In this document: positions 10,250 through 34,800 of the stretch, one piece after another
Numbering within the stretch: the first letter of the stretch is position 1
How the letters are laid out: the number at the start of each line of letters is the position of its first letter
Source: Nitrospirales bacterium
Lineage (GTDB): Bacteria > Nitrospirota > Nitrospiria > Nitrospirales > UBA8639
DNA length: 64,000 bases
NCBI GenBank assembly: GCA_963555755.3
Contig: OY820905.2
Span: 2,144,001-2,208,000 of the forward strand
Direction: 5' to 3'
Program-made: the position numbers and the translations under genes
Notes under the pieces: model-generated
Seen by the model: only the letters and a program-made list of their open reading frames with translations
Told to the model about the DNA's origin: nothing
Database searches by the model: none

Positions 10250-11416
10250 TCACTGAGGGGCGGATTGCTCGTCTTGCGCCACATGGCCTCTCATGGACTT
10301 TTCAACGATGTTGGTTTGAATTTCCCACGCAATGACGCGGGCCAGTTGGTCTGTCGAGAGCGCGCCCATGGGCAGGCCCTTTGTGTCGGGATAAAACGAA
10401 TCCTCCGGGGCGGCGATGCGATGATAATTCACCAAGATCTTTGCGGGTTGAATCGGCGTTCCGCGTTCTCCCACGAAGACGGCGTTGTCTTTCATCGCCA
10501 CACGGGTTCGCGTTGCCCAATCGCGGTCATCGATGTTGACAAAGGCCACGTTCCAGACTTTTCCATTGAGCAGACTTCTGACCGCTCGCTGGGTGTGTTC
10601 CTGGAAAAATGGCTCACGAACAATGAGTTGCAGAGCCTCGCGAACACGGATGTCATACAATCGGGTGGTTTCATCTTGGTGCGTCGGCCGCGTGAGTGTG
10701 GTTGAGCCTACTTCATAGTAGCCTTGTCCCTTGAGGCGCTGCTGATCATCCTCGGTGGTGAGGTAGGTTGCGAACAGACGTTGGAGGCTCTGGAGGCGTT
10801 CGTTTCCCGACATGGCACGAATGTCTTTGTTGGTGTTAATCGGGGCTTTCTGAAGATCTCGACGGATGCGCACCCGGTTGAACCTAGGTGCCATGGATGC
10901 TTTACTGACCACCCATTGAAACTCCCTAGCCAGCGACGGAATCAGTTTTTTAGGATGGGTGAGATGGCCCTTCTCCTCTAACATCGATGCACTGATGAGC
11001 AGTTTGACCTTGCCTTTGTGTTTTGTTCTGACCACAAGGAAAGTAAATTCTTTTCCCTCTCGGTTCACCACTCGGTGTTCAATCAAGACCTTTTGGAGTA
11101 GATCCTTGGTCAGCGCTTCATCGAAGCGTTTGTATTGAGTCCGGTGCTGTATCATTTGGCTCAATGCGTCGACGACAGTATGGATGGCCTTAAGAGCGTG
11201 CGTGTGATCAAAGTTCGCGCCTCTCGCTCCAAATTCTCCCTTCCCCCAAAATACCTGAAATGGCGCACCAGGAATCGGGTGCCCTGTTATCATGCTTCTT
11301 TCTGGAAATGTATCTCCTTCATGTGTCCTGGGGCTTCCGCTGGCCGGGGAACCAAGCATGGCCAGCCAGCCTATGGCTAACAATGCGACCCAACACCGTC
11401 CTACCCAATGCCGCAC
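10250..11416 (-). CDS. Exported hypothetical protein
   Basis: 388-aa ORF with signal peptide. Confidence 0.75.
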   Translation of the reverse strand: MRHWVGRCWVALLAIGWLAMLGSPASGSPRTHEGDTFPERSMITGHPIPGAPFQVFWGKGEFGARGANFDHTHALKAIHTVVDALSQMIQHRTQYKRFDEALTKDLLQKVLIEHRVVNREGKEFTFLVVRTKHKGKVKLLISASMLEEKGHLTHPKKLIPSLAREFQWVVSKASMAPRFNRVRIRRDLQKAPINTNKDIRAMSGNERLQSLQRLFATYLTTEDDQQRLKGQGYYEVGSTTLTRPTHQDETTRLYDIRVREALQLIVREPFFQEHTQRAVRSLLNGKVWNVAFVNIDDRDWATRTRVAMKDNAVFVGERGTPIQPAKILVNYHRIAAPEDSFYPDTKGLPMGALSTDQLARVIAWEIQTNIVEKSMRGHVAQDEQSAPQ

Positions 11417-11499
11417 ACTGGTACATTGCCCCTTGGGACTAGGGTTGCGATTTTGGAATAAAAAGAGTTGGAATCTTTGAGTTTACATCTCATTTAAAG

Positions 11500-11720
11500 G
11501 GGGAATAGGAATTTCCAAAGGCCTGTTTGACTGGACAGCACGGTACCAAATAATTCGGTGAAGGGTCAATCCGCAGACTCCGCCGTCTGATATGCCGGAG
11601 TTTATCCTGCGAGGAGGGTCTGACCGGCCCATTTTTCTAGGATCGGGCCAGCATGTCGCTCCATTGCGGTGTGTGAGTGGGGGAACTGGGCAAAGGAAGC
11701 CTGTCGGCTCGAGCACTGAA
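11500..11720 (-). mobile_element. IS91/ISCR-type oriIS end
   Basis: Minus strand ends TTGGAAATTCCTATTCC. Homologous to 4160-4312 and 13361-13445. Confidence 0.6.
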
Positions 11721-11840
11721 CCGGAATCCAGGGTGGGATGAGGCTGTCTGGGTCTGTTGAATATTTCAGGTTCAAGGCCCATAGATGCTTCAGGTAAGCC
11801 TGCTCGCACCAGTGGGAGGGAACGTTCAAAAAAGCATGCC

Positions 11841-13056
<1,216 letters not shown>

Positions 13057-13177
13057 GAGTCTTTCCGAAGGGTCTATCCAGCAAGGCCGCAGCCCTTTTG
13101 ACGCGCGGAGCGTACTCTCAGTACGTGAGCACGGCAAAATGGCGAGAACGCCGCTGGCGGCTTTTTTCAACATTCCC

Positions 13178-13290
13178 TGTCTGGAAGCATTCGTCGATGC
13201 GAGCCGGTGACCGCGGTGGAGCACGCGTGGGCACATCCAGGTGGGCGAGAATCATGACGATCACGGCGGGATCTTCAATGGCCGGGATGA
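13178..13290 (-). pseudogene. IS91/ISCR transposase C-terminal fragment
   Basis: IPAIEDPAVIVMILAHLDVPTRAPPRSPAR. Cut by a TGACCCC repeat block at ~13330-13360. Confidence 0.75.
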
Positions 13291-13454
13291 GGGTTAAGGG
13301 GCCTACACAGGGTCGAACTAAATAAGTCAATACTCATGCCTGACCCCATACTTGACCCCTACTCATTTTTCTAGGATCGGGCCAGCACGTCGCTCCATTG
13401 TGGCGTGTGAGGGTGGGAACTGGGCAAAGGGAGCGTGTCGGCTGCAAGTCACAG

Positions 13455-13919
13455 TTAAGGCGTTGTGGTGGTATCTTCACAGTGAGAATTTGAGAGACTA
13501 GTGTAATCTATTTGCCCATCGATGTTTTCTGCTATACCGTTGTAGCACACATGTGTGTGTTTCCAGCCTTTACTATTCCAACCCGCGACAGTTTTTGAAG
13601 TACCACATATAATGACTGCTCTGGCACTAGTTCCTGCCGGAAAAACATACTCCGCTGTTTCACCGGGCTTTTTATTACCTCTTCTTTTACAGATAAACAC
13701 CCTATTACCACCAGTGTTACCGCAAGGTTCACTGCCCGCACATCCCACTGCCATGAATAACACATCAAATGAAACACCATCAGGGAATCCCACGCCATCT
13801 ATCGTGTTGGTCTCAATAGTGACCTTATACTTGTTGCCACTCCCAGCGATTGAATTAGCTGGTAAAACAGAGATTGCCATCAGTGAAATTCCTAAAATCA
13901 ACATGGATTTTTTAATCAT
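13455..13919 (-). CDS. Secreted Cys-rich hypothetical protein, low GC
   Basis: AGGAGGA RBS, signal peptide MIKKSMLILG.., six Cys. Confidence 0.7.
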   Translation of the reverse strand: MIKKSMLILGISLMAISVLPANSIAGSGNKYKVTIETNTIDGVGFPDGVSFDVLFMAVGCAGSEPCGNTGGNRVFICKRRGNKKPGETAEYVFPAGTSARAVIICGTSKTVAGWNSKGWKHTHVCYNGIAENIDGQIDYTSLSNSHCEDTTTTP

Positions 13920-13945
13920 TGTCTGTCCTCCTGTATTGATTGCCC

Positions 13946-15032
13946 CTTGCTTATCCTGTTTGCCCACCAACGTACGACCTATAGTAGGGTGGCCGTAGAT
14001 ACATGAGCGCAATGATCCCAATCCCCGTTGTAAAGGCCTCGATACGTGGGGCCGGGCACCTTCATGCCGATACCCAATAGGGAAGCGAAAGCCGTCATCG
14101 GGTAAAAGGGACGGTTGAACCGGAATACGAATTCATTCAGATAGGCCGACAGGTGTTGCGTGCTGACGCTATGGTGAGTTCCCATCAGCCAAGTCTTCAG
14201 ATTCGAGAAGGCGATGTGGATCATAGGGAGGTGGATATCGGTTTTCTCGCGATCGCCATTGCGCACCATGGGCTCGTGCGCGTACCCCAATTGTGTCAGA
14301 TTGTCGTAGCCGCCCCATTCGTCGGTGCGCACCATGGCGCCCGTGACTACGCTCTCCTGCACGAACCCCGTGAGCGTTTTGGCCCCGCGGTTTGGCACGA
14401 GACACAAGCGCAACCTTCCTGCGTAAACGGCTCGGTGGGGCTTTTTGCCATCAACGCCGAGCGGCCGAGGGCGAACTTCGATGGCACCAGCAACCATCGA
14501 TTGATGGTGGACGCCACGTCCTTTGCTCTTGGTGCGCCCCCCCACCAGCGTTTCATCCACCTCGACTGGCCAATCTGCGCCAATCCGGTCGGGGTTGGGG
14601 CGAACCATGCCAGCGCGGAGCTTGTGGAGCATCTGGAATGCGGTCTCGTAGCGAGTCAGCCCAAGCTGGCGCTGAAGCTGCACCGCAGACACGCCGGGCG
14701 TTTGCGTCGTCACCAGATACGCGCCCAAAAACCACGCCTGCAAGGGCGTCCTTGTCGCATGCATGACGGTGCCAGCGGTCAGCGCCACATCACTGTGGCA
14801 ATGTCGGCATCGAATCATCCGTGGTCTCGTGACGATGCGCTGCGCCTTGCTGCTCACGCCGCACGTTGGGCACGCAAATCCGTCCGGCCACCGGATGGCC
14901 TCAAGATAGGCCGCACACGCCATTTCGCTGGGAAACATCTGTTGAAACTCAAGCAACGACTGGGGGTGGCGAATTTCCATGACGATCATACCCTACCTAT
15001 TAGCGTGAGGGTGTGTCAACCGGATAAGCAAG
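13946..15032 (-). mobile_element. IS1595-family element (transposase 13979-14989)
   Basis: Zn ribbon CPTC..CRHC, VEVDET, VRTDEW, YLNEFVFRFN. TIR CTTGCTTATCC. 8-bp TSD GATTGCCC/GTTTGCCC. Confidence 0.92.
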
Positions 15033-15535: not shown

Positions 15536-15869
15536 CCCAAAATCCGCGATGGATTTTGTCAACAGGACTCCTTTGGCGAAAACCACCTGTTTCATCCACT
15601 AGAGAAGTCGCATGGTCAATGTTCTTGCTGGATCCGAGGCCGCCTCCAAGGGATTCCTTGCCGCACTGGGTGTAACCTGCTCCTTCTGGGCAAACTGCTC
15701 CTTTCATGCTTCCTCTCGCGTCTGATTCCTGCCCTGGCTTATGCCTGGGCAGCTTCCGCACAGCGCGTCCGAATCTCCGCACACACGCCCCAAAACCATT
15801 GCTGCACTTTGAGGATCACCGCGCCGGCATGCCGGACCACGTTGCCCGCCAGCTGATACCGCCGCCAAC
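15536..15869 (-). mobile_element. IS1380 3'-end remnant
   Basis: TIR CCCAAAATCCGCGATGG. Encodes ..VVRHAGAVILKVQQ..IRTRCAEAAQA*. Truncated by the GGGGTCA ladder. Confidence 0.85.
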
Positions 15870-15912
15870 GGGTTAGGGGTCAGGTTAGGGTCAGGTTAGG
15901 GGTCAGGTTAGG
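15870..15912 (+). repeat. GGTTAGG(G)GTCA tandem repeats: outer part of the HUH-element left-end ladder
   Basis: Continues in register at 22641 (GG|GGTCAAGTCAC) once the introns are removed. Confidence 0.8.
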
Positions 15913-16016
15913 GTAGAGTAGAGCACTGGTGCATACATGGAGCTGCTCTCGAACGCTTCGACGCACGCGTCTACCACGGACCATAGCAGTCAGCACTTCC
16001 CAGCGCCCCCTCATCA

Positions 16017-18010
16017 GTAGGGTCGAGGACTGGCGCGCCAACGGTAGGGTTCGGTGGCTCCTCCACCCCTTTCGGAATGGGCCTCAGTCCGACTCCCCTG
16101 GTCACGGTTCCAGTCCCCGCCACCTCAAACCCGGCGTGCTGATTTCCAGCACCGGGCTTTCCTGGATGCTTCACCTCAAGGGTTATGTGACCTATCAGCC
16201 TGGAAGGACTTTCATGCCGACCCGTTGTACCGCACTCGGTAATCTCCATATAAGCCAAGTACCGTGTAGAGCCAAACCTTACTCCACCTCTTCCAGCCAA
16301 AACCTCGACGGTGGCGCACTCGCATCATGTGCCGCCGGACCTTCCGCTCCACCCAATCCTTCACGTAGGATAAACACCGACTCGCATGCCCAATCCGGAA
16401 GTCGTTCACCCAGCCCCGTACGATCGGATTGATCATGGCGATCATCCGTCCCACCGGCTGGGATTGCCCGCGTCGGAACACTTCCTTGAGCTTCCGCAGC
16501 AACGCGGTGCGCCGCTTCACCTTCGGTATGTACTGCGGGCGCCACACTCCACGCCGCGACCGCACACGCCGAAAGTCAAAGCCCAGAAAGCCGAAGCTGC
16601 CTCCCTGACTCAGGTCCACGATTCGGCTCTTCTCCTCATTCACCTGAAGGTCTAATTGGGCCAACGCCTCTCGCAGCTTCCGCTCCGCAACCTGCGCCAG
16701 TTGTGCGTGGCGGCGATAGCCATCCACTAACACGACGAGGTCATCCGCAAACCGGACATACTCGAGATACGTATACTGGCCCTGCCGGGTTGTCTCCTTC
16801 AGCTGCTCCAGCCTCTCATCCACTTCCGTGAGATAGAGGTTGGCCAGCAGCGGGGAAATCACACCCCCTTGAGGCACCCCACGCGGGCCGGACGCCTTGA
16901 CGATGAGTTTCACCAGCCGCAGGATCGCGGGATCCTGGATGCGTCGGGCCACCTTCGCCAGCAGCCGGTCATGCCGCACCGTGTCGAAGAAGGCCGCCAG
17001 ATCCACATCAATCACTCGCGTCTTGTTCTGCACCATCGCCTGAGCCACCCGGCCAATCGCCTGATGGGCTGTCCGTTTCGGTCGATACCCATACGACCCG
17101 TCCCGAAAATCCGCCTCAAAGATCGGTTCCAGCAGGAGCTTGAGCGCTCCCTGTACCACGCGGTCCCGAATCGCGGGTATCCCTAAGACGCGGACTCGTC
17201 CACCGCCTTTCGAAATCTCCACGTGCCGGTTCCGCATCGGTCGGTAGGTCTGCGTGACCAGTTCGTCCCGTAGTCGTGCAAGAAAGGGCTCCACCCCCGT
17301 GGCCTCGATGCCAGCAAACGTCACCCCATCAATGCCGGGGGCTCCGTTGTTTTTCTTGGCCATCGAATAGGCCGCGCGTAGCGTCGCCTCTTTGCACACG
17401 TGGACGTACAAGCCCCACACCCGCCATCGCTTCTCAGCCTTCGCCTTGACGTAGAGCCGCTGTCGCAGGTCTTGCAGTGTAATGGACGCCGTTGTCATCT
17501 CGTCCCTGCCTCCCATGTTGATCACAGCCTACAGCCAGTAGGGCTCCTTTGCTCCACAGGCATGACCCTGCTTCCTCGCTCCTACGAGCCCCTCCGCCAC
17601 CCTCTCGTCTTCGGCTCACTTCCCAGAGAGCTGGTTATAGAGCCGATCTTCCTCCAGGGATTTCTCCCTGGGACGAGGAGGGCTTCTCCAGTTGCGTCGT
17701 CTGTCCTTGCTCCCGTGCTGTCGCTCTCACCCCGCCGGAGTGGCCAGGCGTCTCAGCCTTGGTTCGCCTGTCCATGCCGTCTTCGTCCTACGGACAGGGA
17801 CTCGACCTCCGAGGTTTCATACTTTCGAGGCTACCTCTGCGTTCACTTGCGTTACGGCCCGGGAACTCGCTCACCATCCTCTACGATGGCTTTGTCGATG
17901 GGCTTCAGCGTCTCGGTTTCTCTCCACGCTGCCATCCAAGCTACAGGGCTCAGGCTCTTACCCTGGTGGGCTTGCTTCCCACTGAACAGTCTCGCCTTAC
18001 CTGGACACAC
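16017..18010 (-). mobile_element. Group II intron copy A (1994 bp)
   Basis: 5' GTGTG, DV/DVI and 3' ..CGACCCTAC. Confidence 0.95.
16212..17498 (-). CDS. ltrA: Group II intron reverse transcriptase/maturase (no endonuclease domain)
   Basis: APGIDG, LGIPAIRDRVVQ, PQGGVISPLLAN, RFADD, X domain. Confidence 0.95.
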   Translation of the reverse strand: MTTASITLQDLRQRLYVKAKAEKRWRVWGLYVHVCKEATLRAAYSMAKKNNGAPGIDGVTFAGIEATGVEPFLARLRDELVTQTYRPMRNRHVEISKGGGRVRVLGIPAIRDRVVQGALKLLLEPIFEADFRDGSYGYRPKRTAHQAIGRVAQAMVQNKTRVIDVDLAAFFDTVRHDRLLAKVARRIQDPAILRLVKLIVKASGPRGVPQGGVISPLLANLYLTEVDERLEQLKETTRQGQYTYLEYVRFADDLVVLVDGYRRHAQLAQVAERKLREALAQLDLQVNEEKSRIVDLSQGGSFGFLGFDFRRVRSRRGVWRPQYIPKVKRRTALLRKLKEVFRRGQSQPVGRMIAMINPIVRGWVNDFRIGHASRCLSYVKDWVERKVRRHMMRVRHRRGFGWKRWSKVWLYTVLGLYGDYRVRYNGSA

Positions 18011-20004
18011 GTAGGGTCGAGGACTGGCGCGCCAACGGTAGGGTTCGGTGGCTCCTCCACCCCTTTCGGAATGGGCCTCAGTCCGACTCCCCTGGTCACG
18101 GTTCCAGTCCCCGCCACCTCAAACCCGGCGTGCTGATTTCCAGCACCGGGCTTTCCTGGATGCTTCACCTCAAGGGTTATGTGACCTATCAGCCTGGAAG
18201 GACTTTCATGCCGACCCGTTGTACCGCACTCGGTAATCTCCATATAAGCCAAGTACCGTGTAGAGCCAAACCTTACTCCACCTCTTCCAGCCAAAACCTC
18301 GACGGTGGCGCACTCGCATCATGTGCCGCCGGACCTTCCGCTCCACCCAATCCTTCACGTAGGATAAACACCGACTCGCATGCCCAATCCGGAAGTAGTT
18401 CACCCAGCCCCGTACGATCGGATTGATCATGGCGATCATCCGTCCCACCGGCTGGGATTGCCCGCGTCGGAACACTTCCTTGAGCTTCCGCAGCAACGCG
18501 GTGCGCCGCTTCACCTTCGGTATGTACTGCGGGCGCCACACTCCACGCCGCGACCGCACACGCCGAAAGTCAAAGCCCAGAAAGCCGAAGCTGCCTCCCT
18601 GACTCAGGTCCACGATTCGGCTCTTCTCCTCATTCACCTGAAGGTCTAATTGGGCCAACGCCTCTCGCAGCTTCCGCTCCGCGACCTGCGCCAGTTGTGC
18701 GTGGCGGCGATAGCCATCCACTAACACGACGAGGTCATCCGCAAACCGGACATACTCGAGATACGTATACTGGCCCTGCCGGGTTGTCTCCTTCAGCTGC
18801 TCCAGCCTCTCATCCACTTCCGTGAGATAGAGGTTGGCCAGCAGCGGGGAAATCACACCCCCTTGAGGCACCCCACGCGGGCCGGACGCCTTGACGATGA
18901 GTTTCACCAGCCGCAGGATCGCGGGATCCTGGATGCGTCGGGCCACCTTCGCCAGCAGCCGGTCATGCCGCACCGTGTCGAAGAAGGCCGCCAGATCCAC
19001 ATCAATCACTCGCGTCTTGTTCTGCACCATCGCCTGAGCCACCCGGCCAATCGCCTGGTGGGCTGTCCGTTTCGGTCGATACCCATACGACCCATCACGA
19101 AAATCCGCCTCAAAGATCGGTTCCAGCAGGAGCTTGAGCGCTCCCTGTACCACGCGGTCCCGAATCGCGGGTATCCCTAAGACGCGGACTCGTCCACCGC
19201 CTTTCGAAATCTCCACGTGCCGGTTCCGCATCGGTCGGTAGGTCTGCGTGACCAGTTCGTCCCGTAGTCGTGCAAGAAAGGGCTCCACCCCCGTGGCCTC
19301 GATGCCAGCAAACGTCACCCCATCAATGCCGGGGGCTCCGTTGTTTTTCTTGGCCATCGAATAGGCCGCGCGTAGCGTCGCCTCTTTGCACACGTGGACG
19401 TACAGGCCCCACACCCGCCATCGCTTCTCAGCCTTCGCCTTGACGTAGAGCCGCTGTCGCAGGTCTTGCAGTGTAATGGACGCCGTTGTCATCTCGTCCC
19501 TGCCTCCCATGTTGATCACAGCCTACAGCCAGTAGGGCTCCTTTGCTCCACAGGCATGACCCTGCTTCCTCGCTCCTACGAGCCCCTCCGCCACCCTCTC
19601 GTCTTCGGCTCACTTCCCAGAGAGCTGGTTATAGAGCCGATCTTCCTCCAGGGATTTCTCCCTGGGACGAGGAGGGCTTCTCCAGTTGCGTCGTCTGTCC
19701 TTGCTCCCGTGCTGTCGCTCTCACCCCGCCGGAGTGGCCAGGCGTCTCAGCCTTGGTTCGCCTGTCCATGCCGTCTTCGTCCTACGGACAGGGACTCGAC
19801 CTCCGAGGTTTCATACTTTCGAGGCTACCTCTGCGTTCACTTGCGTTACGGCCCGGGAACTCGCTCACCATCCTCTACGATGGCTTTGTCGATGGGCTTC
19901 AGCGTCTCGGTTTCTCTCCACGCTGCCATCCAAGCTACAGGGCTCAGGCTCTTACCCTGGTGGGCTTGCTTCCCACTGAACAGTCTCGCCTTACCTGGAC
20001 ACAC
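18011..20004 (-). mobile_element. Group II intron copy B (1994 bp)
   Basis: Abuts copies A and C with no exon base between. Confidence 0.95.
18206..19492 (-). CDS. ltrA: Group II intron RT/maturase
   Basis: Near-identical to copy A. Confidence 0.95.
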   Translation of the reverse strand: MTTASITLQDLRQRLYVKAKAEKRWRVWGLYVHVCKEATLRAAYSMAKKNNGAPGIDGVTFAGIEATGVEPFLARLRDELVTQTYRPMRNRHVEISKGGGRVRVLGIPAIRDRVVQGALKLLLEPIFEADFRDGSYGYRPKRTAHQAIGRVAQAMVQNKTRVIDVDLAAFFDTVRHDRLLAKVARRIQDPAILRLVKLIVKASGPRGVPQGGVISPLLANLYLTEVDERLEQLKETTRQGQYTYLEYVRFADDLVVLVDGYRRHAQLAQVAERKLREALAQLDLQVNEEKSRIVDLSQGGSFGFLGFDFRRVRSRRGVWRPQYIPKVKRRTALLRKLKEVFRRGQSQPVGRMIAMINPIVRGWVNYFRIGHASRCLSYVKDWVERKVRRHMMRVRHRRGFGWKRWSKVWLYTVLGLYGDYRVRYNGSA

Positions 20005-21998
20005 GTAGGGTCGAGGACTGGCGCGCCAACGGTAGGGGTCGGTGGCTCCTCCACCCCTTTCAGAGTGGGCCTCAATCCGACTCCCCTGGTCACGGTTCCA
20101 GTCCCCGCCACCTCAAACCCGGCGTGCTGATTTCCAGCACCGGGCTTTCCTGGATGCTTCACCTCAAGGGTTATGTGACCTATCAGCCTGGAAGGACTTT
20201 CATGCCGACCCGTTGTACCGCACTCGGTAATCTCCATATAAGCCAAGTACCGTGTAGAGCCAAACCTTACTCCACCTCTTCCAGCCAAAACCTCGACGGT
20301 GGCGCACTCGCATCATGTGCCGCCGGACCTTCCGCTCCACCCAATCCTTCACGTAGGATAAACACCGACTCGCATGCCCAATCCGGAAGTAGTTCACCCA
20401 GCCCCGTACGATCGGATTGATCATGGCGATCATCCGTCCCACCGGCTGGGATTGCCCGCGTCGGAACACTTCCTTGAGCTTCCGCAGCAACGCGGTGCGC
20501 CGCTTCACCTTCGGTATGTACTGCGGGCGCCACACTCCACGCCGCGACCGCACACGCCGAAAGTCAAAGCCCAGAAAGCCGAAGCTGCCTCCCTGACTCA
20601 GGTCCACGATCCGGCTCTTCTCCTCATTCACCTGAAGGTCTAATTGGGCCAACGCCTCTCGCAGCTTCCGCTCCGCAACCTGCGCCAGTCGTGCGTGGCG
20701 GCGATAGCCATCCACTAACACGACGAGGTCATCCGCAAACCGGACATACTCGAGATACGTATACTGGCCCTGCCGGGTTGTCTCCTTCAGCTGCTCCAGC
20801 CTCTCATCCACTTCCGTGAGATAGAGGTTGGCCAGCAGCGGGGAAATCACACCCCCTTGAGGCACCCCACGCGGGCCGGACGCCTTGACGATGAGTTTCA
20901 CCAGCCGCAGGATCGCGGGATCCTGGATGCGTCGGGCCACCTTCGCCAGCAGCCGGTCATGCCGCACCGTGTCGAAGAAGGCCGCCAGATCCACATCAAT
21001 CACTCGCGTCTTGTTCTGCACCATCGCCTGAGCCACCCGGCCAATCGCCTGATGGGCTGTCCGTTTCGGTCGATACCCATACGACCCGTCCCGAAAATCC
21101 GCCTCAAAGATCGGTTCCAGCAGGAGCTTGAGCGCTCCCTGTACCACGCGGTCCCGAATCGCGGGTATCCCTAAGACGCGGACTCGTCCACCGCCTTTCG
21201 AAATCTCCACGTGCCGGTTCCGCATCGGTCGGTAGGTCTGCGTGACCAGTTCGTCCCGTAGTCGTGCAAGAAAGGGCTCCACCCCCGTGGCCTCGATGCC
21301 AGCAAACGTCACCCCATCAATGCCGGGGGCTCCGTTGTTCTTCTTCGCCATCGCATAGGCCGCGCGTAGCGTCGCCTCTTTGCACACGTGGACGTACAGG
21401 CCCCACACCCGCCATCGCTTCTCAGCCTTCGCCTTGACGTAGAGCCGCTGTCGCAGGTCTTGCAGTGTAATGGACGCCGTTGTCATCTCGTCCCTGCCTC
21501 CCATGTTGATCACAGCCTACAGCCAGTAGGGCTCCTTTGCTCCACAGGCATTACCCTGCTTCCTCGCTCCTACGAGCCCCTCCGCCACCCTCTCGTCTTC
21601 GACTCACTTCCCAGAGAGCTGGTTATAGAGCCGATCTTCCTCCAGGGATTTCTCCCTGGGACGAGGAGGGCTTCTCCAGTTGCGTCGTCTGTCCTTGCTC
21701 CCGTGCTGTCGCTCTCACCCCGCCGGAGTGGCCAGGCGTCTCAGCCTTGGTTCGCCTGTCCATGCCGTCTTCGTCCTACGGACAGGGACTCGACCTCCGA
21801 GGTTTCATACTTTCGAGGCTACCTCTGCGTTCACTTGCGTTACGGCCCGGGAACTCGCTCACCATCCTCTACGATGGCTTTGTCGATGGGCTTCAGCGTC
21901 TCGGTTTCTCTCCACGCTGCCATCCAAGCTACAGGGCTCCGGCTCTTACCCTGGTGGGCTTGCTTCCCACTGAACAGTCTCGCCTTACCTGGACACAC
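20005..21998 (-). mobile_element. Group II intron copy C (1994 bp)
   Basis: 5' GTGTG follows ACGCACGGAT of the outer intron DV. Confidence 0.95.
20200..21486 (-). CDS. ltrA: Group II intron RT/maturase
   Basis: Near-identical, with a few private substitutions. Confidence 0.95.
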   Translation of the reverse strand: MTTASITLQDLRQRLYVKAKAEKRWRVWGLYVHVCKEATLRAAYAMAKKNNGAPGIDGVTFAGIEATGVEPFLARLRDELVTQTYRPMRNRHVEISKGGGRVRVLGIPAIRDRVVQGALKLLLEPIFEADFRDGSYGYRPKRTAHQAIGRVAQAMVQNKTRVIDVDLAAFFDTVRHDRLLAKVARRIQDPAILRLVKLIVKASGPRGVPQGGVISPLLANLYLTEVDERLEQLKETTRQGQYTYLEYVRFADDLVVLVDGYRRHARLAQVAERKLREALAQLDLQVNEEKSRIVDLSQGGSFGFLGFDFRRVRSRRGVWRPQYIPKVKRRTALLRKLKEVFRRGQSQPVGRMIAMINPIVRGWVNYFRIGHASRCLSYVKDWVERKVRRHMMRVRHRRGFGWKRWSKVWLYTVLGLYGDYRVRYNGSA

Positions 21999-22701
21999 AT
22001 CCGTGCGTATGGTTTTCCCATACACGGCTTTCCGATGTTCTTCTTCCAGCGGCATGCGTCTGTCATCAGGCAATAGCCACATTCAGACTTGGCCTTCTGA
22101 GATAGTTTCCTCTGTAGTGTCCTGATCGTGCTCGGGGTGGTTAGCGCAATGGCAATCCCCTGATCCTCCACTCGTCGGAAACGTGAACAAAGTAGGGTCC
22201 CTTCCCTCGGGCCGGGTTGTGTTGTCCCAGGCTCTCCAACGGTACTATGAACCCCTCCGACTCCCACGACGGCCCGCAGCGATTTCGGTATCCCTTATAC
22301 GCCTCAGTTGCTGGTTCTGCGCCAGCACCGTCGCGGGTCTCCCGTCCTGCACGGTGTCTCTTCCGCCACATGCCATCCCTGCTACCCCGGAAGATCCTGA
22401 GGGTGGGTGTTCGTTCTACTCCCTCAAACGGCGGCCTTCCCCTTCTGACCACAGGGTCGGCATCTCCAATTCGTTTACGAGGCTACATCTAGGTTCGCTT
22501 GCGCTACGGCCTGCGGCTTTGCCCATGGGAAACTTCAACCCCTGATTACTCAGACGCTGCTTCCTGGTGCTAGAAAGGTGTACGAACAACTCCTTTCGCG
22601 GGACTTCAACCCGCTAGACACACCGCCGATGACGGCATGCGGTCAAGTCACTTGCTTCATGATAAAGAAAAGGAAAAGGGGTCAGAAAAGGGGTCAGAAA
22701 A

Positions 22702-23734
22702 GGGGTCAAGTCACTTGCTTCATGATAAAAAAGTAGTTAGACTCTGGTCATGCCTCGACCTCCTCGGATGGAATACGAGCATGCGGTGTATCATGTCATG
22801 AATCGTGGCCGGGCTCGGCACCCGGTGTTTCATGATGCCCGGTACTATCGAGCCTTTCTCGACACGTTGGCCGAGCTGCATACCCGCTTCCAGGGTGTGA
22901 TTCATGCCTATTGCTTGATGGGCAATCACTATCATGTCTTGCTGGAAACTCCCAGGGCCAATCTCAGTCGCATGATGCGCCATCTTAACGGGGTGTATAC
23001 GCAACGGCATAATCGTCTCAAACGTACTGATGGCTCTTTGTTTCGAGGCCGCTATAAAGCCATTTTGGTGGAGCACGATGCCTATTTGCTCCACGTGTCC
23101 CGGTATATCCATCGAAACCCTCTTGACGGCATACGGCCGCTGGTCACGAATTTGTCTGATTATCCCTGGTCGAGCTATCCGACATATATCGGTCAAGCGA
23201 AGCCGGCACCGTGGTTGTGCCGGGAACCGACGTATCGCCTGCTTGGGCATGTGCACCGGTATCGCGGGTATGCTCGCTACGTGCTAGAGGGCAACGATAA
23301 AGAAATCGAGTATTTTTCCCAACGGGGTAATAGGGCGGCCATTATGGGAGGGCAGGAGTTCAAATCTTGGGTCTATGACGAATTACTGCCGGATCTTGAA
23401 GCGGAGGAGAAAGGGCAGGTGATCCAGCCGAGTCTTGCAATCGACACTATGATCACTGGGGTGGCCAAGGCCTATCGCACGACACCAGACCGGCTGACCA
23501 TGGTAGTGAAAGGGCCGCAAAAAGGGAATGAGGCTCGGAAACTGGCGATGTATCTGTGTCAGGAATTAGCGGATGTGAAACTTCAGGACATTGCGCCCTG
23601 CTTCCATCTGCGTCATAGCGGTTCGGTGAGTTTTATCACCCACCAGGTCAGAAAGAAGAAACGAGACGAGAAGGGATTTGCCGCTAGAATGAACGAGGTG
23701 ATTGAAAGTATTCTGAAGCAATCGACTTGACCCC
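22702..23734 (+). mobile_element. HUH Y1 (RAYT-like) transposase element copy 1 with 21-bp TIRs (ORF 22750-23730)
   Basis: YHVMNRG, HAYCLMGNHYHVLL, YIHRNP, YPWSSY, C-terminal DnaA-like HTH. TIR GGGGTCAAGTCnnTTGCTTCA (19/21). Confidence 0.9.
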
Positions 23735-24190
23735 TATTCGACCCCTATTCTTGACCCCTATTCATAGGGCGGCCATTATGGGAGGGCAGGAGTTCAAATC
23801 TTGGGTCTATGACGAATTACTGCCGGATCTTGAAGCGGAGGAGAAAGGGCAGGTGATCCAGCCGAGTCTTGCAATCGACACTATGATCACTGGGGTGGCC
23901 AAGGCCTATCGCACGACACCAGACCGGCTGACCATGGTAGTGAAAGGGCCGCAAAAAGGGAATGGGGCTCGGAAACTGGCGATGTATCTGTGTCAGGAAT
24001 TAGCGGATGTGAAACTTCAGGACATTGCGCCCTGCTTCCATCTGCGTCATAGCGGTTCGGTGAGTTTTATCACCCACCAGGTCAGAAAGAAGAAACGAGA
24101 CGAGAAGGGATTTGCCGCTAGAATGAACGAGGTGATTGAAAGTATTCTGAAGCAATCGACTTGACCCCTATTTGACTTGACCCCTATTTT
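23735..24190 (+). repeat. Right-end ladder, including a ~405-bp duplication (23764-24168) of the transposase 3' end
   Basis: Copy of 23330-23734 with short GACCCCTATT units on both sides. Confidence 0.9.
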
Positions 24191-24368: not shown

Positions 24369-27300
24369 TTGTTGAGTGGTCATAGTAGAAGTCAGCTAAT
24401 GTTATTTTTATTAACTTTGACATCTTTAGGATTTCTTGGATTTTTGTCTTATGATGTTTTTGCTGAACCTACATTCACACTTGAGTGGGATGGAACTTCA
24501 CAACATGATAATACCGTAAATGTTGGTGACACTATTGCTTGGGAATGGATTGGTCTTCAACATAATTTAGTATGGGATGACGAAACAGGAGTTCCTCTAC
24601 CTGATCCATCGTTTGGATTTCCAGATATCGTTGATGAACCAAATACCTACGCATTTACATTTACTGAACCTGGAGAATACTATTATCACTGTACAATTCA
24701 TTCAGAGCAATCTGGTGTTGTAACTGTTCTACCGTCGCCTATCACACTTGAGTGGGATGGAACTTCACAACATGATAATACCGTAAATGTTGGTGACACT
24801 ATTGCTTGGGAATGGATTGGTCTTCAACATAATTTAGTATGGGATGACGAAACAGGAGTTCCTCTACCTGATCCATCGTTTGGATTTCCAGATATCGTTG
24901 ATGAACCAAATACCTACGCATTTACATTTACTGAACCTGGAGAATACAACTATCACTGTACAGTCCATGAAGAACAATTTGGAGTTGTAATTGTTGAATC
25001 ATCTGAAGAACCTGTACTTGCTTGGGCTGGATCTTCACAACATGATAATACCGTAAATGTTGGTGATACACTTACTTGGGAATGGGGTGGAAATAGTCAT
25101 AATTTAGTATGGGATCCAGAATCAGGAGTTCCTCTACCTGATCCATCATTTGGATTTCCAGATATTGTTAATGCTCCAAATACATACGCATTTACATTTA
25201 CTGAACCTGGACAATACTTCTATCACTGTGAAGTTCACTCACAACAATTTGGAGTTGTAACTGTTCTACCGCCAGCAAGTTGGCCAAACTGGGGAGGGGA
25301 CTTGTCTAACACAAAGAATGCCTCAACCGAATCTCAACTGTCTCCTGATAATATTGACGCTCTCATAGAAGATTGGATATACACCACTGATGGCTCTGTA
25401 GTTTCATTTGTTACTGTTCAAGGAAATGATGCATACTTTGTTAGTAGAGTAACTCCTGATGGTCAATCTTTTCCTGCAGCAGATGCAATGCTTAATTCTA
25501 TTAATCGTATAACTGGAGAACTCAATTGGGCATTCCCAATTTCAAGTTATGTTGAATCCTCATCTAATCCATCTCTTGTAAATGATGATGCTAGAGTCTC
25601 ACCTGCAATACAAGATGATATTTTAGTTGTGGGTACACAATATGCAGCAAATGGTGCAACTGTCTTTGCAGTTGACAGAAACACTGGCGATGAACTTTGG
25701 GAAACTGCAGTAGATGATCACATATATTCTATAATCACAAGCTCTCCTACAATTTATCAGGATAGAGTCTATGTTGGTGTTTCTTCTCTTGAAGAATTAT
25801 GGGCAGGAATTACCCAAGATCCGCGATGGGTTTGGTCAACAGAGGTCCTTTGGCAAAACCCACGTGTTCGCGCCATTGCTTAGTCAATGGTCTGGCTGGA
25901 TTTGAGCCACCTCCCAGAGTTGCCTGTCCTGACATGGGATCGACCAGCCTTTTGGGCAGACCACTCCCTTCCTGCTTCCTTCTTCTCTTGTGCTGTCCCC
26001 TGCCCCGGCTTAATAAGGCTGGGCAGCTTCTGCACAGCGCGTCCGAATCTCCTCACACAAGCCCCACAGCTGTTGTTGCACTTTGAGGATCACGGCACCA
26101 GCATGCCGGACCACTTTGCCCGCCACCTGATACAGCCGCCAACGCACCGTGCGCACTTGGCACTGGCTCCAGGCATAGGGCAACGCCAACAACTTGAACA
26201 ACACAAACAGGTTGTAGGCTAACACGCCAATGCGAAAGAAGACGGCATTGGCCGCGAAGGTCCCACACGGAAGCCGTTCCATGCCAAAGCCACTCTTCAG
26301 TTCTTTGATGCGATTCTCGCTGGTCTCGCCCCGCTGGTTGTACCATCGTACAATCTCCTCAGGGGTTCCATCTCGGTTCGTCGCAATCAGCGTGTAGCGC
26401 AGGCTGGGGGCCTCGGGGGCAAACAGATCCTGTTGCACGGGCCGTCGCAATACGATGAGGCGAAAGGCTTGCTTGGTCTTCGCCATACAATGTACCGTTT
26501 CAGCGAGATGGCCATCTCGGTAGGGTTGCCACTGGCTCTCAGGGATGGCGGCAATGACGGCCTGCACGGCCGTATCCTGCACGCCCCCAATCGCAAACGT
26601 CACGTTGTGCTCCTCGCACCAATTGAACAACTCCGCTTGGTACGCCGCACTATCCGCCCGCACATGAGCAATCCGTTTGCCTTTGGGCATCTGCGCCGCA
26701 CACGCCTGGGTGAATTCAAGATTGCGGGACGCCGGAGCCTCATTCCCTTCACGAAACTCCTCCCCAAGCACCAGCCCATTTTCCGCCAGGTGCCCCAGCA
26801 TCGGCAGATAGCCTCGCTCCCCCTTGTACGTCCATTTGGCTGCCTGCTTCTCCGCGACAATCTGCGTGGCATCAAGATCGAGGGTATAGTCCGTGCGCGG
26901 TTCCCGCTTCAACGCCCGCCGGATCTGCTGCTGATTGACGACGGCTAAACTTGCTAAACCATCCTTCTCCCCCATGCGTCGCAGCCAATCGCCCGTGGCA
27001 TCGGCACTGGGAACCACGGGGAGTCGCAGCACGGCCCGCAAGCCCGCATCCTCGCGAATCTGGCGCAGATCCTCCAGCGTCCGGCCCCCGCCATGCAACA
27101 TCAGCAGCAGGGGCTCGACAAATTGGGCGGGGTGATAGCCGATGCGGCTCCCGGGCGCGGGCAAGGCCGCATTGAGTTGCCGGGGCACATTCATGGCTTG
27201 GAGAAACTCCCCGAACAGCGCCAGCCCGCCATGAGCGGTGAGCTGTTCGTCGGTGGGCTCAAGCTTGAACGGAAGAACGGTTTGTGGCATCATTCGTTTC

Positions 27301-29116
27301 ACCTCGTTGGTGAGGAGTGGCTAAGGGGGTAGGCACCCGTATCTTAGCAAATCAACGAGGTTTTTTTATGCCCAAAATAAATCCATCGCGGATCTTGGGA
27401 ATTATTCCTGACTATGATTGTTGTACCTTTATTGGTAGTTTAGTGTCCCTTGATTTGAATACTGGTGATATATTGTGGAAATCTTATACTGCACCACTTT
27501 TACCTGAAGGTACACTTCCTAGTGATTGGTATTCAGGTAATGCTGTTTGGGGAAGCTCACCATCAATTGATCCATCACGAAATTCTGTATACATAGCAAC
27601 AGGTAACAACTATCAAACCCCAAATGACTTGGAAGAATGTATTGCAAATGCAGAAACATTACCTACTCCTGAAGAAGTTGAAGCTGCAAAACTGATTTGT
27701 CAAGAAGACATTGATGTTCCAGGAAATCTATTTGATGCTATAGTCTCTTATGATCTTGATACAGGAGATGTAAACTGGGCTAACAAACTATGGAGTTCAG
27801 ACTCTTGGAATGTTGCTTGCTTCTTGGGAGGTGAAAACTGTCCAGATCCATTTGCACCTGACTATGACTTTGGCCAAGCTCCTATGCTCTTTACAGTGTT
27901 TGTAGATGATGACCCAGTAGATCTAGTAGGTTCCGGTCAAAAGAGTGGAATCTTCTGGGCGCTTGATCGTGATATTGGAGAAATTGTTTGGACTGTTAAT
28001 CCTGGACCTGGAAGTACACTTGGAGGTATGCAATGGGGATCAGCAGTTGATGATCAAAGAGTTTATGGTCAAATAACAGGTACTGATGAAGCAGGACCAT
28101 ATACCATTTTTGATTTTGAAGGTACTCCAACTGTAATTACTGGTGGTTCATGGTGGGCAGTAGATGCTGCAACTGGAGAATTACTTTGGCAAACTGCAGC
28201 ACCTGATGGCAGTTTAACATGGGGACAAGTCAGCGTAGCTAATGGATTATTATTTGCTGGAACTTTGGGTAATGCTCAAGATGGTATGATGGTTATTATG
28301 GATGCTGCAACAGGTGATATCCTTTGGACAAAAGACATTGGCGGTTCTGTTTCTGCAGCTCCTACAATTGTTAATGGCCAACTAATCTGGCCAACTGGAT
28401 ATGGAGGCTTTGGCGGTTCTTACAATAATGAAATATTTGCATTTAGTTTAGAATCAATTGGAATTGATTTTGATAATGATGGATTTACTGAAGAAGAAGA
28501 TTGTGATGATAATAATCCTGAGATAAATCCAGATGCATTTGATATTCCAAATAACGGCATTGATGAAAATTGTGATGGAGTAGATGCACAAGGTGGTGGT
28601 GTGGACCTTAGTGGAGTATTAGATGCAATTGAAGATGCAAAGACTATGATACTTGATGCACTAGGATTACTTGATATAAAATTAGATCAAGTTTCTGAAA
28701 AGATTGACAACATTGATACAGGTTCTGATAGTGTAGAACGAGTTTCAGTAACTGTGAAGATGCCAGGTGTTGTAATGAAACCAGGTGAAGTGTTTGTACT
28801 ATTAGATACAACTGGTTCTGGAACTTTAGAAACAGTTCATGTTGCAGTTAATTTACCATGTTCAAAAAATAACGAGCCAAGATTCTCAGTACTGGCAGGA
28901 GTTGCAGGTGGTTCACTAGAACCAGTAATTAGCAGTTCTGATGACTTTACTGGATTTAAGGGACCAAAGAAGACCTGCACATTCCATGATACAATACTTG
29001 CAAGTGAAGTTCCAGGTGGAGAAATTACTGATGTTATTTTAATCAATGATGGAAACAAAAAATCTACTTTACCAAGATATTCAGTAGTAACCATAACTGG
29101 TACATATTCTCCTTGA
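24369..29116 (+). pseudogene. 3x cupredoxin + PQQ-type beta-propeller dehydrogenase + Asp/Cys metal-binding repeat + C-terminal domain (~1051 aa), interrupted by IS1380
   Basis: Three H..CxxH..Q blue-copper repeats, WPNWGGD, YDCCTFIGS, DYDFGQAP, GGMQWG, DxDNDGF..DCDD..NGIDENCDG. Halves rejoin in frame (LWAGI|IPDYDCC). Strongly AT-rich. Confidence 0.85.
25813..27399 (-). mobile_element. Complete IS1380-family element (transposase 26010-27302)
   Basis: Perfect TIR CCCAAGATCCGCGATGG, 5-bp TSD AATTA, LDLDAT, VRADSA, YNQRGETSENRIKELK. Confidence 0.95.
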
Positions 29117-29365
29117 TTTTATTTTTATTAATTTTACGCCTAGATAAAATTAGAGTGTCAATGTGATCTGACAAATCGCCCTCCCAGTGTCATGATTTAA
29201 GGCAAAAATTGTAAGGGTCTTGAACTAACTTGACAAGTCACCTCGAGGGCCTACATTTTTTGGTTAAAGACTCTCACATTACATTTCATTCTAAAATTAG
29301 TGTAAACTTCAGTAAAGCACCCTAGATAAATACGAGATAATTTTATTAAAAAAGGGGTCAAAAAA

Positions 29366-30398
29366 GGGGTCAAGTCACTTGCTTCATGATAAAAAAGTAG
29401 TTAGACTCTGGTCATGCCTCGACCTCCTCGGATGGAATACGAGCATGCGGTGTATCATGTCATGAATCGTGGCCGGGCTCGGCACCCGGTGTTTCATGAT
29501 GCCCGGTACTATCGAGCCTTTCTCGACACGTTGGCCGAGCTGCATACCCGCTTCCAGGGTGTGATTCATGCCTATTGCTTGATGGGCAATCACTATCATG
29601 TCTTGCTGGAAACTCCCAGGGCCAATCTCAGTCGCATGATGCGCCATCTTAACGGGGTGTATACGCAACGGCATAATCGTCTCAAACGTACTGATGGCTC
29701 TTTGTTTCGAGGCCGCTATAAAGCCATTTTGGTGGAGCACGATGCCTATTTGCTCCACGTGTCCCGGTATATCCATCGAAACCCTCTTGACGGCATACGG
29801 CCGCTGGTCACGAATTTGTCTGATTATCCCTGGTCGAGCTATCCGACATATATCGGTCAAGCGAAGCCGGCACCGTGGTTGTGCCGGGAACCGACGTATC
29901 GCCTGCTTGGGCATGTGCACCGGTATCGTGGGTATGCTCGCTACGTGCTAGAGGGCAACGATAAAGAAATCGAGTATTTTTACCAACGGGGCAATAGGGC
30001 GGCCATTATGGGAGGGCAGGAGTTCAAATCTTGGGTCTATGACGAATTACTGCCGGATCTTGAAGCGGAGGAGAAAGGGCAGGTGATCCAGCCGAGTCTT
30101 GCAATCGACACTATTATCACTGGGGTGGCCAAGGCCTATCGCACGACACCAGACCGGCTGACCATGGTAGTGAAAGGGCCGCAAAAAGGGAATGAGGCTC
30201 GGAAACTGGCGATGTATCTGTGTCAGGAATTAGCGGATGTGAAACTTCAGGACATTGCGCCCTGCTTCCATCTGCGTCATAGCGGTTCGGTGAGTTTTAT
30301 CACCCACCAGGTCAGAAAGAAGAAACGAGACGAGAAGGGATTTGCCGCTAGAATGAACGAGGTGATTGAAAGTATTCTGAAGCAATCGACTTGACCCC
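29366..30398 (+). mobile_element. HUH Y1 (RAYT-like) transposase element copy 2 (ORF 29414-30394)
   Basis: 1033 bp, near-identical to copy 1. Confidence 0.9.
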
Positions 30399-31888: not shown

Positions 31889-34800
31889 TCAATTCTCAAG
31901 AGAGAAGAAAAGGTTCCTGACACCTTTTGCCCAAGATGGGTGCGCGGTGATGCACGTTTGTTGATTTGGACCGATAAGGGCCAACTGGTGGACGGTCAGC
32001 GTCACTTCACCGAACTCTTCTTCAAGAATGCCTTCCAAGAGGTAGGGCCGGTTGCCGGTGAGCAAATGGCCATACTTTTGAAAAACCTTCGGGAAGAACG
32101 TGGCATCGTAGAGGCCGGTGAGATCTTCGAAGGTGGTGAATTCCATGGGCTGGCCGTTGTTCGTTTCAGCAAACTTTTCCGTTATCAACCAGCCGACCAT
32201 TCTGACTTGCTTGCCGGCGTGCAAGTGCATCTCTGATGCTGAGACGAATTCATGGTCTTTAAGAACATCCTGGTATAACTCCAGGGGGTGTTTGCTGAGC
32301 GGGAAGCCGAAGAGTTCGATTTCGTCTTTGATCTTTTGGTTGCTGCTATATTCTGGTGGGATGGGTAGAGCGCGTGAGACGTGATGCGTAATGCGTGATG
32401 CGTTAGAAGATAAAAGTGAAGAGTGAGAAAAAAGAAAGAGATTGCCTTCCTTTGAATGATAGGATTTTTCTCTGGCATACAGCCGCCACAACAATCCGGG
32501 TCGTGTAACTTCTCCGGCGATGGTGTCGAAGCAGCCGGCTTTGATGAGTAGGCGTGTTTGGGCAAGTTCGGCTTTGACTCTGTCGAGAAATTCCTGCAAC
32601 GACACATAGGGGCTGTTGGTGTTTCGCTCTTCGATAATCGCTTCGATGAATTCTTTTTTCAGTCCTTTGATTTGCATGAACCCGACTCTGATCGCATGAC
32701 CATTGCCGGCATAGGCCCACTCGCTGGCGTTGATGTCCGGTAGCAGCACCGTGAGGCCCATGCGTTTTGATTCGGACAGATAGGCACTGGTCGAGTAAAA
32801 CCCGCCTTGGTTGCTGATGACCGACGCCATAAACTCAGCGGGATAATGCGCACGCAAGTAGGCCGACTTGAACGACACTTGGGCATAGGACGCCGAATGG
32901 GGTTTGCAAAAGCTGTAGCCGACAAAGCTCATGATCATGCCCCATATGGCATCGATTATCGACCTCGATACGTTCTTGGCGGTGGTGCCCCGATAGAATT
33001 GGGCTTTGTAATCCTGGAGCTGTTTCTGCTTGTGTTTTTTGCTCAGGACTTTTCGCAACTGATCCGCGTCTTCGATGGAAAAGTCGGCCAGGGCCATGGC
33101 CACTTTGGTGACGTCCTCCTGGTACACCATGATGCCATGCGTTTCATCTAACACCTCCTCGAGCAACGGATGCGGGCTGGTGTAGGGTTTGCCATGGGCG
33201 CGCTGCACAAATTCTCGCACGTACCGGTTGGCTGCCGGCCTGATGAGCGATGACACAATCACGAGGTATTCGAAAACGTCGGCGCAGGCTTTGCGTTCCG
33301 GCGGCATGCCTTTCCAGAGTCGTCTGAGTAAAAGTCGCGTGGCGGGGGATTCGACGTAGAAGCAGCCCATGGTGTCGCCGCGACAGATGAGCTCTTTGGT
33401 TGGGTCGTCGTTGATCGCATCCCAGGTGGCATAGTCGATGACATGGCCGGTGTTCTGGGCGATGGCGCGCAACGCATCTCGGATGACAGCCAGGGAGCGG
33501 TTGCCCAGGATGTCGAGCTTGACGAACCCCGCATCTTCGGTTTGGTCTTTTTCCCACTGGATGACGGGTATGCCTTTAGCCGAGATTTGGACGGGCACGT
33601 ACTTTCTGATTTCGTCGGGCACAATGACGATGCCTCCGCAATGCAACCCCAGGTTTCTGACACGCCCTTCGAGCTGCACGGCCACAGTGAAAATTTCTGG
33701 CCACGGCTTGGCCAGATGCAACGCATGGCACCAGGCGTTGATGGACCCGCTGTCGCTCAGGTGATTGAACACAGGTTGTCTCTCAAGATTGGGCATGAGC
33801 GCATTCATTTCTCCCGTGGGGATACCATACACTTTGGCCACTTCGCGTATCGCGGCCCTGAGGCCCAGCGTGTTTTGATTGGCAACCATCGCGACGCGTG
33901 TGGCACCGTACTTGGCGAACACATAATCCAGAATGCCATCGCGCTCATCCCACGCAAAGTCCACGTCGATGTCTGGCGGATCGTGCCGGCCTACATTTAA
34001 AAACCGTTCAAAAAACAAATTGTGGCGAATGGGATCCACATGCGTGATGCCGAGGCAGTACGACACGATCGACGCGGCAGCTGATCCCCTGCCGCATGTA
34101 CGCGGGGCTTGTTGTACAATTTCATCTACCACTAAGAAGCAATGCGCAAAGCTTTTGGCTTGAATGACCTGTAATTCGGCTTCGATGCGGTCTTTGACTG
34201 GTTTGGTGATTGTGCCGTAGCGCCAGGTTGCGCCATCGTACGTTTTGTCCCTGAGTAGCGTAAATGCCTGCGTATCTGAAAGTTGGCGAAAGGCTGGGAA
34301 GATGGTGTCCTTGAAATCCCAGTCGGTCTGGCACATCTCGGCAATGCGTTGCGTATTGTCGAGCGCTTCCGGGACATGGGGAAACTGCTCTGCCATGAAT
34401 GACGCCGGCGCGAACCAATTCGTTTCCGCACAGCAGTGTTCCACGGTCAACTTGGACAGCGTGGTATTCAACGCGATGGCTCTGAGCACCTTGTGCAGCG
34501 CATGTTGTGTGGGGCTGACAAACCGCACACGATTGGTCGCGACCACAGGCAACTTGAAGTCTCGACTGAATTGCAGAGACTGGTGCATCATGGCGCTGGG
34601 CGTCAGTTCTACATAGAGGTCGTGCAGCTTGCGTTTCTTCCACGACTTGAGCGCGAGTGCATCATCGGAAATGACAATCAGCCCGAAGCTATACTCAGCG
34701 ACGGCGTTGATGACATCACACGACTCTCCACTGTGCAGCAGTGACAGGAGTCGGCACAGGTTGGCATAGCCATCGGGATTTTTGATCAACAGGACGGCCC

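Follow-up and report, generated by a model that had tools for sequence, protein, structure and literature searches.

Stacked or nested introns have been described in passages of several reports that bear on the locus studied here, a chromosomal array in which three group II introns lie head to tail inside a fourth. The IIB1 intron EcKTE56.groEL forms tandems by insertion of a further copy precisely at the 5' exon|intron junction; such tandems were found in 4.2% and 22.4% of intron-positive colonies for two constructs and involve a U-G wobble at exon-binding site 3 (EBS3) (Gomes et al. 2025, PMC12584367). The YADD-targeting introns M.a.I5, UA.I3, P.l.I2, and B.th.I3 home into active-site codons of reverse transcriptase (RT) genes (PMC2504315), and nests of up to five introns in Methanosarcina acetivorans have been described in terms of a perpetual homing site balanced by recombinational loss (PMC4424553). 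In the Trichodesmium twintron T.e.I7/T.e.I8, the inner intron is spliced before its host in vivo (PMC4649490). The array reported here occupies positions 15913 to 22640, on the minus strand, of a 64,000-nucleotide (nt) stretch, hereafter the window, of the genome of a Nitrospirales bacterium (assembly GCA_963555755.3, contig OY820905.2; G000 and C1, respectively, in genomic coordinates). A literature search returned nothing on bacterial introns that target domain V (DV; the other intron domains are abbreviated likewise) or on natural head-to-tail trimers; the Calgary intron database may record DV twintrons. We propose that a DV-targeting inner intron probably re-homed in front of its own resident copy, that the occupied site thereby stays usable, and that the array is a selfish nest.

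The three inner introns, copies C (20005 to 21998), B (18011 to 20004), and A (16017 to 18010), are 1994 bp each, start with GTGTG, end with CCCTAC, and have zero bases between them. The head-to-tail junction CCCTAC|GTGTG is embedded in the same 60-mer at 17981 to 18040 and at 19975 to 20034. Pairwise differences amount to 16 (C/B), 14 (C/A), and 6 (B/A), and each copy encodes an intact RT/maturase of 428 amino acids (aa) with an FADD motif (C, 20200 to 21486, TIGR04416 356.7 bits against a cut-off of 300; B, 18206 to 19492; A, 16212 to 17498). Copy C, which adjoins the intact target, has a minor haplotype 3 nt from the copy at G000:C1:2225398; copy B is 1 nt from the major genomic haplotype, and copy A has the major haplotype with a C-type patch at nt 908 to 947. 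The 5' part of the host (outer) intron, at 21999 to 22640, comprises DI to DIV and 32 of the 33 nt of DV (Rfam D1D4-6, 63 bits), its first 566 nt matching a parent that bears an open reading frame (ORF). The 3' part, at 15913 to 16016, holds the last DV base and a long DVI ending in CTCTAC. The halves meet at GCACGGAT|TGATGAG, and the host intron is flanked by TTGACC|CCTAAC. Coordinates, ends, and ORFs thus agree with the preliminary description of three abutting 1994-bp RT-encoding introns in an ORF-deleted host.

That description also had the inner introns splitting DV. The insertion point does lie within DV, between nucleotides 32 and 33, but the hairpin on its 5' side (21999 to 22030) still folds (computed, -13.3 kcal/mol, z -4.5) and keeps together the AGC triad, the AC bulge, and the 5-nt loop. 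What is lost to the insertion is the last DV base pair and the link between DV and DVI, so that DV is instead parted from DVI. The last six nucleotides of the interrupted hairpin, ACGGAT, are the intron-binding site 1 (IBS1) of the inner intron. Rfam models matched the 5' domains of all four introns and the DV-DVI region of copy C (RF02003 for copies A, B, and C; RF00029, 43.4 bits, for copy C only).

In the whole of G000, the inner intron is present in 13 full copies plus fragments. All full copies have the ends GTGTG...CCCTAC, which fit the 5' GUGYG and 3' AY consensus; DV has the AGC triad and bulge, and DVI forms a hairpin (fold, z -4.3). With ends this precise and at most 60 differences among them, the 13 copies are an indirect sign that the intron is, or was, able to splice and retrohome. 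Its ORF, located in DIV, matched PF00078 (RVT_1), PF08388 (GIIM), and, above cut-off, TIGR04416; a domain search of the 428-aa protein returned RVT_1 and GIIM only and no endonuclease domain. EBS1, GUCCGU, was placed at nt 216 to 221 (21783 to 21778 in copy C) by covariation in 56 relatives. It is complementary to the IBS1 forms ACGGAT, ACGGAC, and ACGGTT, with 6 of 6 pairs for ACGGAT, one of them G-U. The adjacent delta base is U (21784), and EBS3 is probably G (21772). Both inner and outer introns can be called class F-like by DV loop and DVI, rather than by phylogeny. The DV loop has 5 nt in each (GAAAU, inner; GAAAA, outer), a class F feature common to class E, and DVI is about 105 and 100 nt long, respectively, long structured DVIs being a class F tendency (passages of PMC3753933).

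We counted 12 independent 5' junctions of the inner intron in G000, of which 9 fall within DV of host-family introns and 2 within fragments of DV from another intron. The survey of the flanks of other genomic copies that the preliminary description had suggested thus placed 11 of 12 junctions in DV. The twelfth lies in the gene for formate-tetrahydrofolate ligase (fhs), with a perfect EBS1 match and the upstream GGAAAA shared. This copy (L182, G000:C1:1562261-1560268) interrupts the gene at a site mimicking DV; the downstream exon looks like part of a pseudogene, since it has an in-frame stop after 32 codons.

The same preference was seen outside this genome. Relatives were taken as the best 80 of 595 from a scan of 7 of the 64 parts of a genome collection; upstream DNA sufficed in 64 of them, the 5' end was resolved in 58, and EBS1 was readable in 56. 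Pairing between EBS1 and the flank showed no mismatch in 43 of these 56, one in 11, and two in 2. The same DV position of another intron was the insertion site for 25 of 58 relatives, several of which share one genome, compared with 24 of 1,820 shifted control windows. These DV-sited relatives span at least 7 phyla, and the DV label needs 9 changes on a quick tree, which argues that the EBS1 loop has been retargeted repeatedly. Two named plasmids (L180 and L181) carry the same DV-site insertion. The inner intron's own DV hexamer mismatches its own EBS1 at 3 of 6 positions, and at least two mismatches were found in 16 of 17 readable DV-targeting relatives. Selected self-avoidance was considered and set aside, as relatives that do not target DV have the same kind of DV, so that selection is not shown.

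The 746-nt host derives by deletion from a 1972-nt intron that carries an RT gene of about 445 aa, and the RT of the host family is about 38% identical to the inner RT. An uninterrupted ORF-bearing relative lies at G000:C1:230290-228319, with ACGGAT|TGATGAG intact at G000:C1:228423. The inner intron occupies 7 of 7 ORF-less and 2 of 3 full ORF-bearing host copies in G000. Host and inner haplotypes are not co-inherited, which fits invasion by the inner intron after the host had homed. The host 5' end is GCAUG and not the canonical GUGYG; GCATG is found at 12 of 12 5' ends of this family (family A), always after TGACC. An alternative 5' end at the internal GTGTG (nt 19) was rejected, because GCATG is where the homology among all copies starts and because EBS1 fits the bases just before it. 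The outer EBS1, GGUCAG (22445 to 22450), is complementary to the 5' exon (C/T)TGACC; judged by this match and by its multicopy state, the outer intron works like a mobile group II intron despite GCAUG. Across the two host-type families, TGACC precedes each of the 17 5' ends, and C follows all 18 listed 3' ends. Families A (GCAUG, 12 5' ends) and B (GUUCG, 5) are related, have EBS1 GGUCAG in common, and insert at TGACC|C, their target repeats being of the type found beside Y1 transposases. In family A, epsilon' is GU rather than GC, which may compensate for A3, though family B does not fit this. The 5' pattern of the outer family was found in 0 of 300 other genomes of the phylum. Three more distant relatives of the inner intron (L052, L076, and L110) also adjoin GGGGTCA repeats, and two of them (L052 and L076) start with GCGTG.

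To judge whether the array is real, four public runs, representing four studies, were checked for the junction, and three were positive. Contigs of X1 and X2 contain a 60-letter record that matches it exactly, and X9 contains one of 58 letters; contigs of the RNA run X8 held no junction record. Junction depth compared with intron depth was 560 versus 2,361 (X1), 232 versus 894 (X2), and 7 versus 13.3 (X9). In X1 and X2 it was about 1.7 to 1.8 times a single-copy depth of 322 and 132, respectively, rough values that were taken from a contig matching a paralogous repeat; depth is a rough guide only, and the three-copy transposase had depths of 966 and 371. This suggests about two junctions per genome in X1 and X2, as in G000, where a pattern search returned exactly 2, although one junction-bearing run may be the source sample of the G000 assembly. 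The array is not a mere assembly echo, because the exact junction is present in three runs from three studies. The preliminary description had come to the same view from private substitutions in the copies. The view holds through the independent runs, and not through that argument, since only 1 of 18 variable sites is private.

How could a second and a third copy enter a site that is already occupied? Insertion at the 5' edge of a resident copy would keep IBS1 and change only the +1 base, from T to the G of GUGUG. The junction hexamer CCCTAC, by comparison, pairs with the inner EBS1 at 3 of 6 positions. Since EBS1 cannot read this junction but reads the intact DV hexamer, new copies most likely enter in front of a resident, not behind it. 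Homing would proceed by reverse splicing into the lagging-strand template at replication forks; we infer this fork dependence because the endonuclease domain is missing and because insertions show a strand bias. By GC skew, 13 of 13 inner and 15 of 17 host-type sites lie in leading-strand sense, the inner orientation following that of the host and hence not being independent. Dispersed copies would then likely swap alleles by recombination or gene conversion. The result would be a selfish nest, an intron in an intron in a transposase-flanking repeat.

The remaining obstacle is the +1 base. In 58 relatives it was C in 40, T in 13, A in 3, and G in 2, and it is from this prevalence of C and T that EBS3 was assigned as G. 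The five purine sites behaved differently. Among the 51 relatives with a readable delta and +1 base, 5 of 5 were Watson-Crick partners of delta, and +1 A occurred in 3 of 7 introns with delta U versus 0 of 44 others (Fisher p 0.0017, a post hoc test on small numbers). Delta is U in the inner intron of the window and C in most relatives, and the odd +1 sites of the window lineage are A (fhs) and G (the tandem). A delta-IBS3 pair is used by the IIB intron C.te.I1 (PMC4024640). We hypothesize that delta reads a purine at +1, including G1 of a resident copy; delta U, unlike EBS3, would pair with this G1, so the occupied site would remain usable. A broader and more tentative proposal, which we regard as possible but would not favor, is that a widespread class F-like lineage parasitizes DV with dual reading of +1 (pyrimidines by EBS3, purines by delta) and builds natural stacks that splice by a ratchet. 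If this were true, a resident copy could in every case be read at its G1, occupied sites would remain open, and the same or different introns could stack at one phosphodiester bond; the trimer would then lend itself directly to self-splicing in four ordered steps.

Junctions of this kind are not confined to the window. In a metagenome scan, the 3'|5' junction of the lineage was present in 83 stretches (81 without two sub-loci), and at 50 of 50 readable junctions the EBS1 of the downstream copy mismatched the junction at 3 to 6 of 6 positions. One locus (L128) holds a near-identical stacked pair, and at two others different introns are stacked at one DV site (L106, 88% identity over 1976 nt; L111, 90% over 102 nt). 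Since the two introns of each of these stacks differ, neither self-circles nor an assembly echo accounts for them. Many of the junction contigs from metagenomes consist of one intron, circularly permuted, and could represent collapsed arrays or circles. Eight junction contigs (L085, L086, L094, L098, L131, L144, L149, and L150) belong to ORF-deleted members of the inner lineage that keep the first 30 to 47 and the last approximately 25 codons; ORF-less derivatives thus also form 3'|5' junctions. In X1 and X2, a 54-letter record with 4 differences from window positions 17994 to 18040 crosses the junction at depths of 681 and 1,700, next to the 3' end of a related intron at 1,773 and 3,367; it may derive from a sister intron that is heavily stacked in a different organism of the samples.

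Several observations count against re-homing in front. EBS3 G mismatches the resident G1, the U-G wobble of the laboratory precedent being absent, and +1 G was found in only 2 of the 58 relatives. No tandem copy was found at any of the 80 relatives' genome loci, and a search of 400 other genomes of the order for the junction pattern had no match. G000 still has at least 8 free DV sites whose hexamers pair with EBS1; target shortage therefore does not explain the stack, and target saturation was rejected as its cause. Alleles provide a further point. At 17 of 18 sites that vary among A, B, and C, only alleles present in 10 other full genomic copies were found, the sole private allele being at nt 600 of copy A. 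With alleles mosaic and common to dispersed copies and a single private site, the copies exchanged sequence or were mis-phased, and on this evidence their insertion order is undatable, so that the order given in the preliminary description, A oldest and C newest, finds no dates in the substitutions. Its proposal that each copy homed to the intact 5' exon site in front of the last is permitted by EBS1 and has a laboratory precedent (PMC12584367), but three independent homing events are not shown. X2 has the junction and almost no depth on copy C alleles; the distinct haplotype of copy C may therefore postdate the array. Finally, no contig of a public run spans the array; the junction records extend 30 letters to either side, one short of the bridging threshold. 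An error of assembly or polishing, with one or two copies in reality and mosaic alleles from mis-phased repeats, would account for the lack of a spanning contig and for the sharing of alleles, and the left-flank repeat allele of the window was not seen in X1 or X2. Given the exact junction in three studies, its depth in X1 and X2, and the two junctions of G000 (with the proviso on the source sample), we consider such an error quite improbable.

Other routes to an exact 3'|5' junction were weighed as well. An RNA circle might be reverse transcribed into circular or concatemeric cDNA that recombines into a resident copy. This route needs no acceptance of +1 G, the class F intron Ge.ur.I1-1 makes true circles in vitro (PMC3753933), and many of the metagenomic junction contigs are approximately 1 to 2 kb circular permutations of a single intron. 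Self-circles, however, would not be expected to stack introns of 88 to 90% identity at one DV site, and the readable EBS1 loops of these stacks (both copies in L106, the upstream copy in L111) fit that very site. Reported circles can carry extra letters (PMC4649490; PMC3753933), whereas the window junctions are exact, and passages of the literature do not describe integration of circles into a genome. We therefore regard circles as an improbable origin, if a little less so than an assembly error. Insertion of new copies behind the resident, at its 3' end and with A the newest, would keep the cognate +1 T, but it requires EBS1 to read CCCTAC, with its 3 of 6 pairs here and its mismatches at all 50 readable junctions elsewhere, and we hold it to be very unlikely indeed. 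One of the two junctions could have arisen by unequal recombination. A plain unequal crossover of a C-A dimer giving B was rejected, because B has A-type and not C-type alleles at nt 1924 to 1961; by its alleles, B would fit such an origin only if the crossover fell in the last 33 nt or conversion followed. The reading that we retain is re-homing in front of the resident copy.

If the array is transcribed, ratchet splicing in the order C, B, A, host is the predicted default route, because only copy C has a matching IBS1. It is probably neither obligatory nor selected, the latter because the exons are non-coding. The preliminary description held that splicing would have to run C, B, A, which is too strong, since the 5' domains of C could use the identical DV of A together with its DVI. 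Spliced junctions, for which that description had looked to RNA, were absent from the contigs of RNA runs X8 and X11, although contigs drop rare forms. In RNA-run contigs, both the host|C and the A|host junction are present in unspliced form, which is not proof of absent splicing. As the exons are intergenic, with no host reading frame interrupted, and no spliced junction was found, both an obligatory four-step cascade and a need for one remain unproven. A promoter scan gave one 9/12 minus-strand match (22751 to 22722), which is not evidence of transcription. Compatible with re-homing is a one-step exit in which DI to DIII of C cooperate with DV-DVI of A while B and the rest become a large DIV loop, or no productive splicing at all. 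DV is identical in copies C and A, and the cognate +1 base for EBS3, T, is present only at the 3' junction of A. Distant copies of DV/DVI are used by C.te.I1 in vivo (PMC4024640), 'zombie' twintrons are spliced out as a single unit (PMC8393795), and the RNA-run contigs contain unspliced junctions only. On the other hand, local co-transcriptional folding should favor the DV-DVI of copy C itself, and reverse splicing of C at exon|G would imply forward splicing there too. We consider this alternative somewhat unlikely, but a real contender.

The array lies in a region rich in insertion sequences (IS). Its 5' exon is a TGACCCC/GGGGTCA repeat tract (22641 to 22749, minus strand) flanking a Y1 transposase gene, and its 3' exon (15880 to 15912, minus strand) consists of intergenic TGACCCC-type repeats. 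The gene, at 22750 to 23730 on the plus strand and with 3 genomic copies, encodes an IS200-like tyrosine transposase of the type associated with repetitive extragenic palindromes (NF047646 62.7 bits, below the cut-off of 80), with a DnaA-like C-terminal helix-turn-helix. A direct duplication of approximately 430 bp of its 3' part follows its TGACCCC repeats (23727 to 24190). Just downstream of the array, at 15536 to 15870, is a 335-bp dispersed repeat with 10 further genomic copies, 76 to 98% alike. The segments from 10250 to 14989 and from 26010 to 30394 contain IS110, IS1595, DDE_Tnp_1_4, and two Y1 transposases, and a gene for an error-prone-type DNA polymerase III alpha subunit and an IMS-family gene lie at 31889 to 36573. 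Fifty-nine kilobases from the array, at G000:C1:2226241-2222683, a host-plus-inner twintron occupies a TGACC|CC site; a 489-nt inner 3' fragment and another host 3' end come after it, and the whole is apparently a nest that was rearranged.

The array probably does little for the host cell, and interest in it will be mainly specialist, chiefly in the stacking rule. Tandem re-homing, found in print only from the laboratory, has here a natural example in a chromosome, and the lineage concerned lands on the most conserved RNA element of other introns. The choice between delta and EBS3 makes a testable rule of 3' exon recognition, and copy-specific alleles could tell ratchet from skip splicing. Intron surveys will undercount such arrays, as short-read assemblies collapse them; one published intron pipeline excludes multi-intron sequences (PMC4028801).

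Compared with the systems described in the cited passages, the array has the exact 3'|5' joint in common with the EcKTE56.groEL tandems (PMC12584367). Those are laboratory dimers at the stop codon of a host gene with an EBS3 U-G pair, whereas the array is a natural trimer in DV of another intron with a presumed EBS3 G. Like T.e.I7/T.e.I8, it is a bacterial group II twintron (PMC4649490), but neither the single inner intron in DI, nor the coding host gene, nor the demonstrated splicing of that system holds for it. The class F introns D.a.I1, Ge.ur.I1, and Pe.th.I2 resemble its members in the 5-nt DV loop, the long DVI, and the lack of an endonuclease domain; the passages of PMC3753933 do not describe DV targeting or stacking for them. 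The side-by-side modules of the Ophiostoma ips cob I4 'trintron' and of 'zombie' twintrons, with predicted ratchet or one-unit exit, are similar in arrangement, but those tandems are organellar group I introns (PMC8393795). C.te.I1 is alike in its use of distant DV/DVI and of delta-IBS3 and differs in that only DV/DVI is repeated and serves a host function (PMC4024640). With the Methanosarcina nests and the YADD-targeting introns, the array shares the targeting of a conserved motif of other introns and the absence of coding exons (PMC4424553, PMC2504315). In those systems RT codons are the target and the introns are nested, whereas here the ribozyme DV is targeted and the copies lie head to tail at one site. 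By analogy with these nests, a perpetual homing site balanced by recombinational loss would fit the array well.

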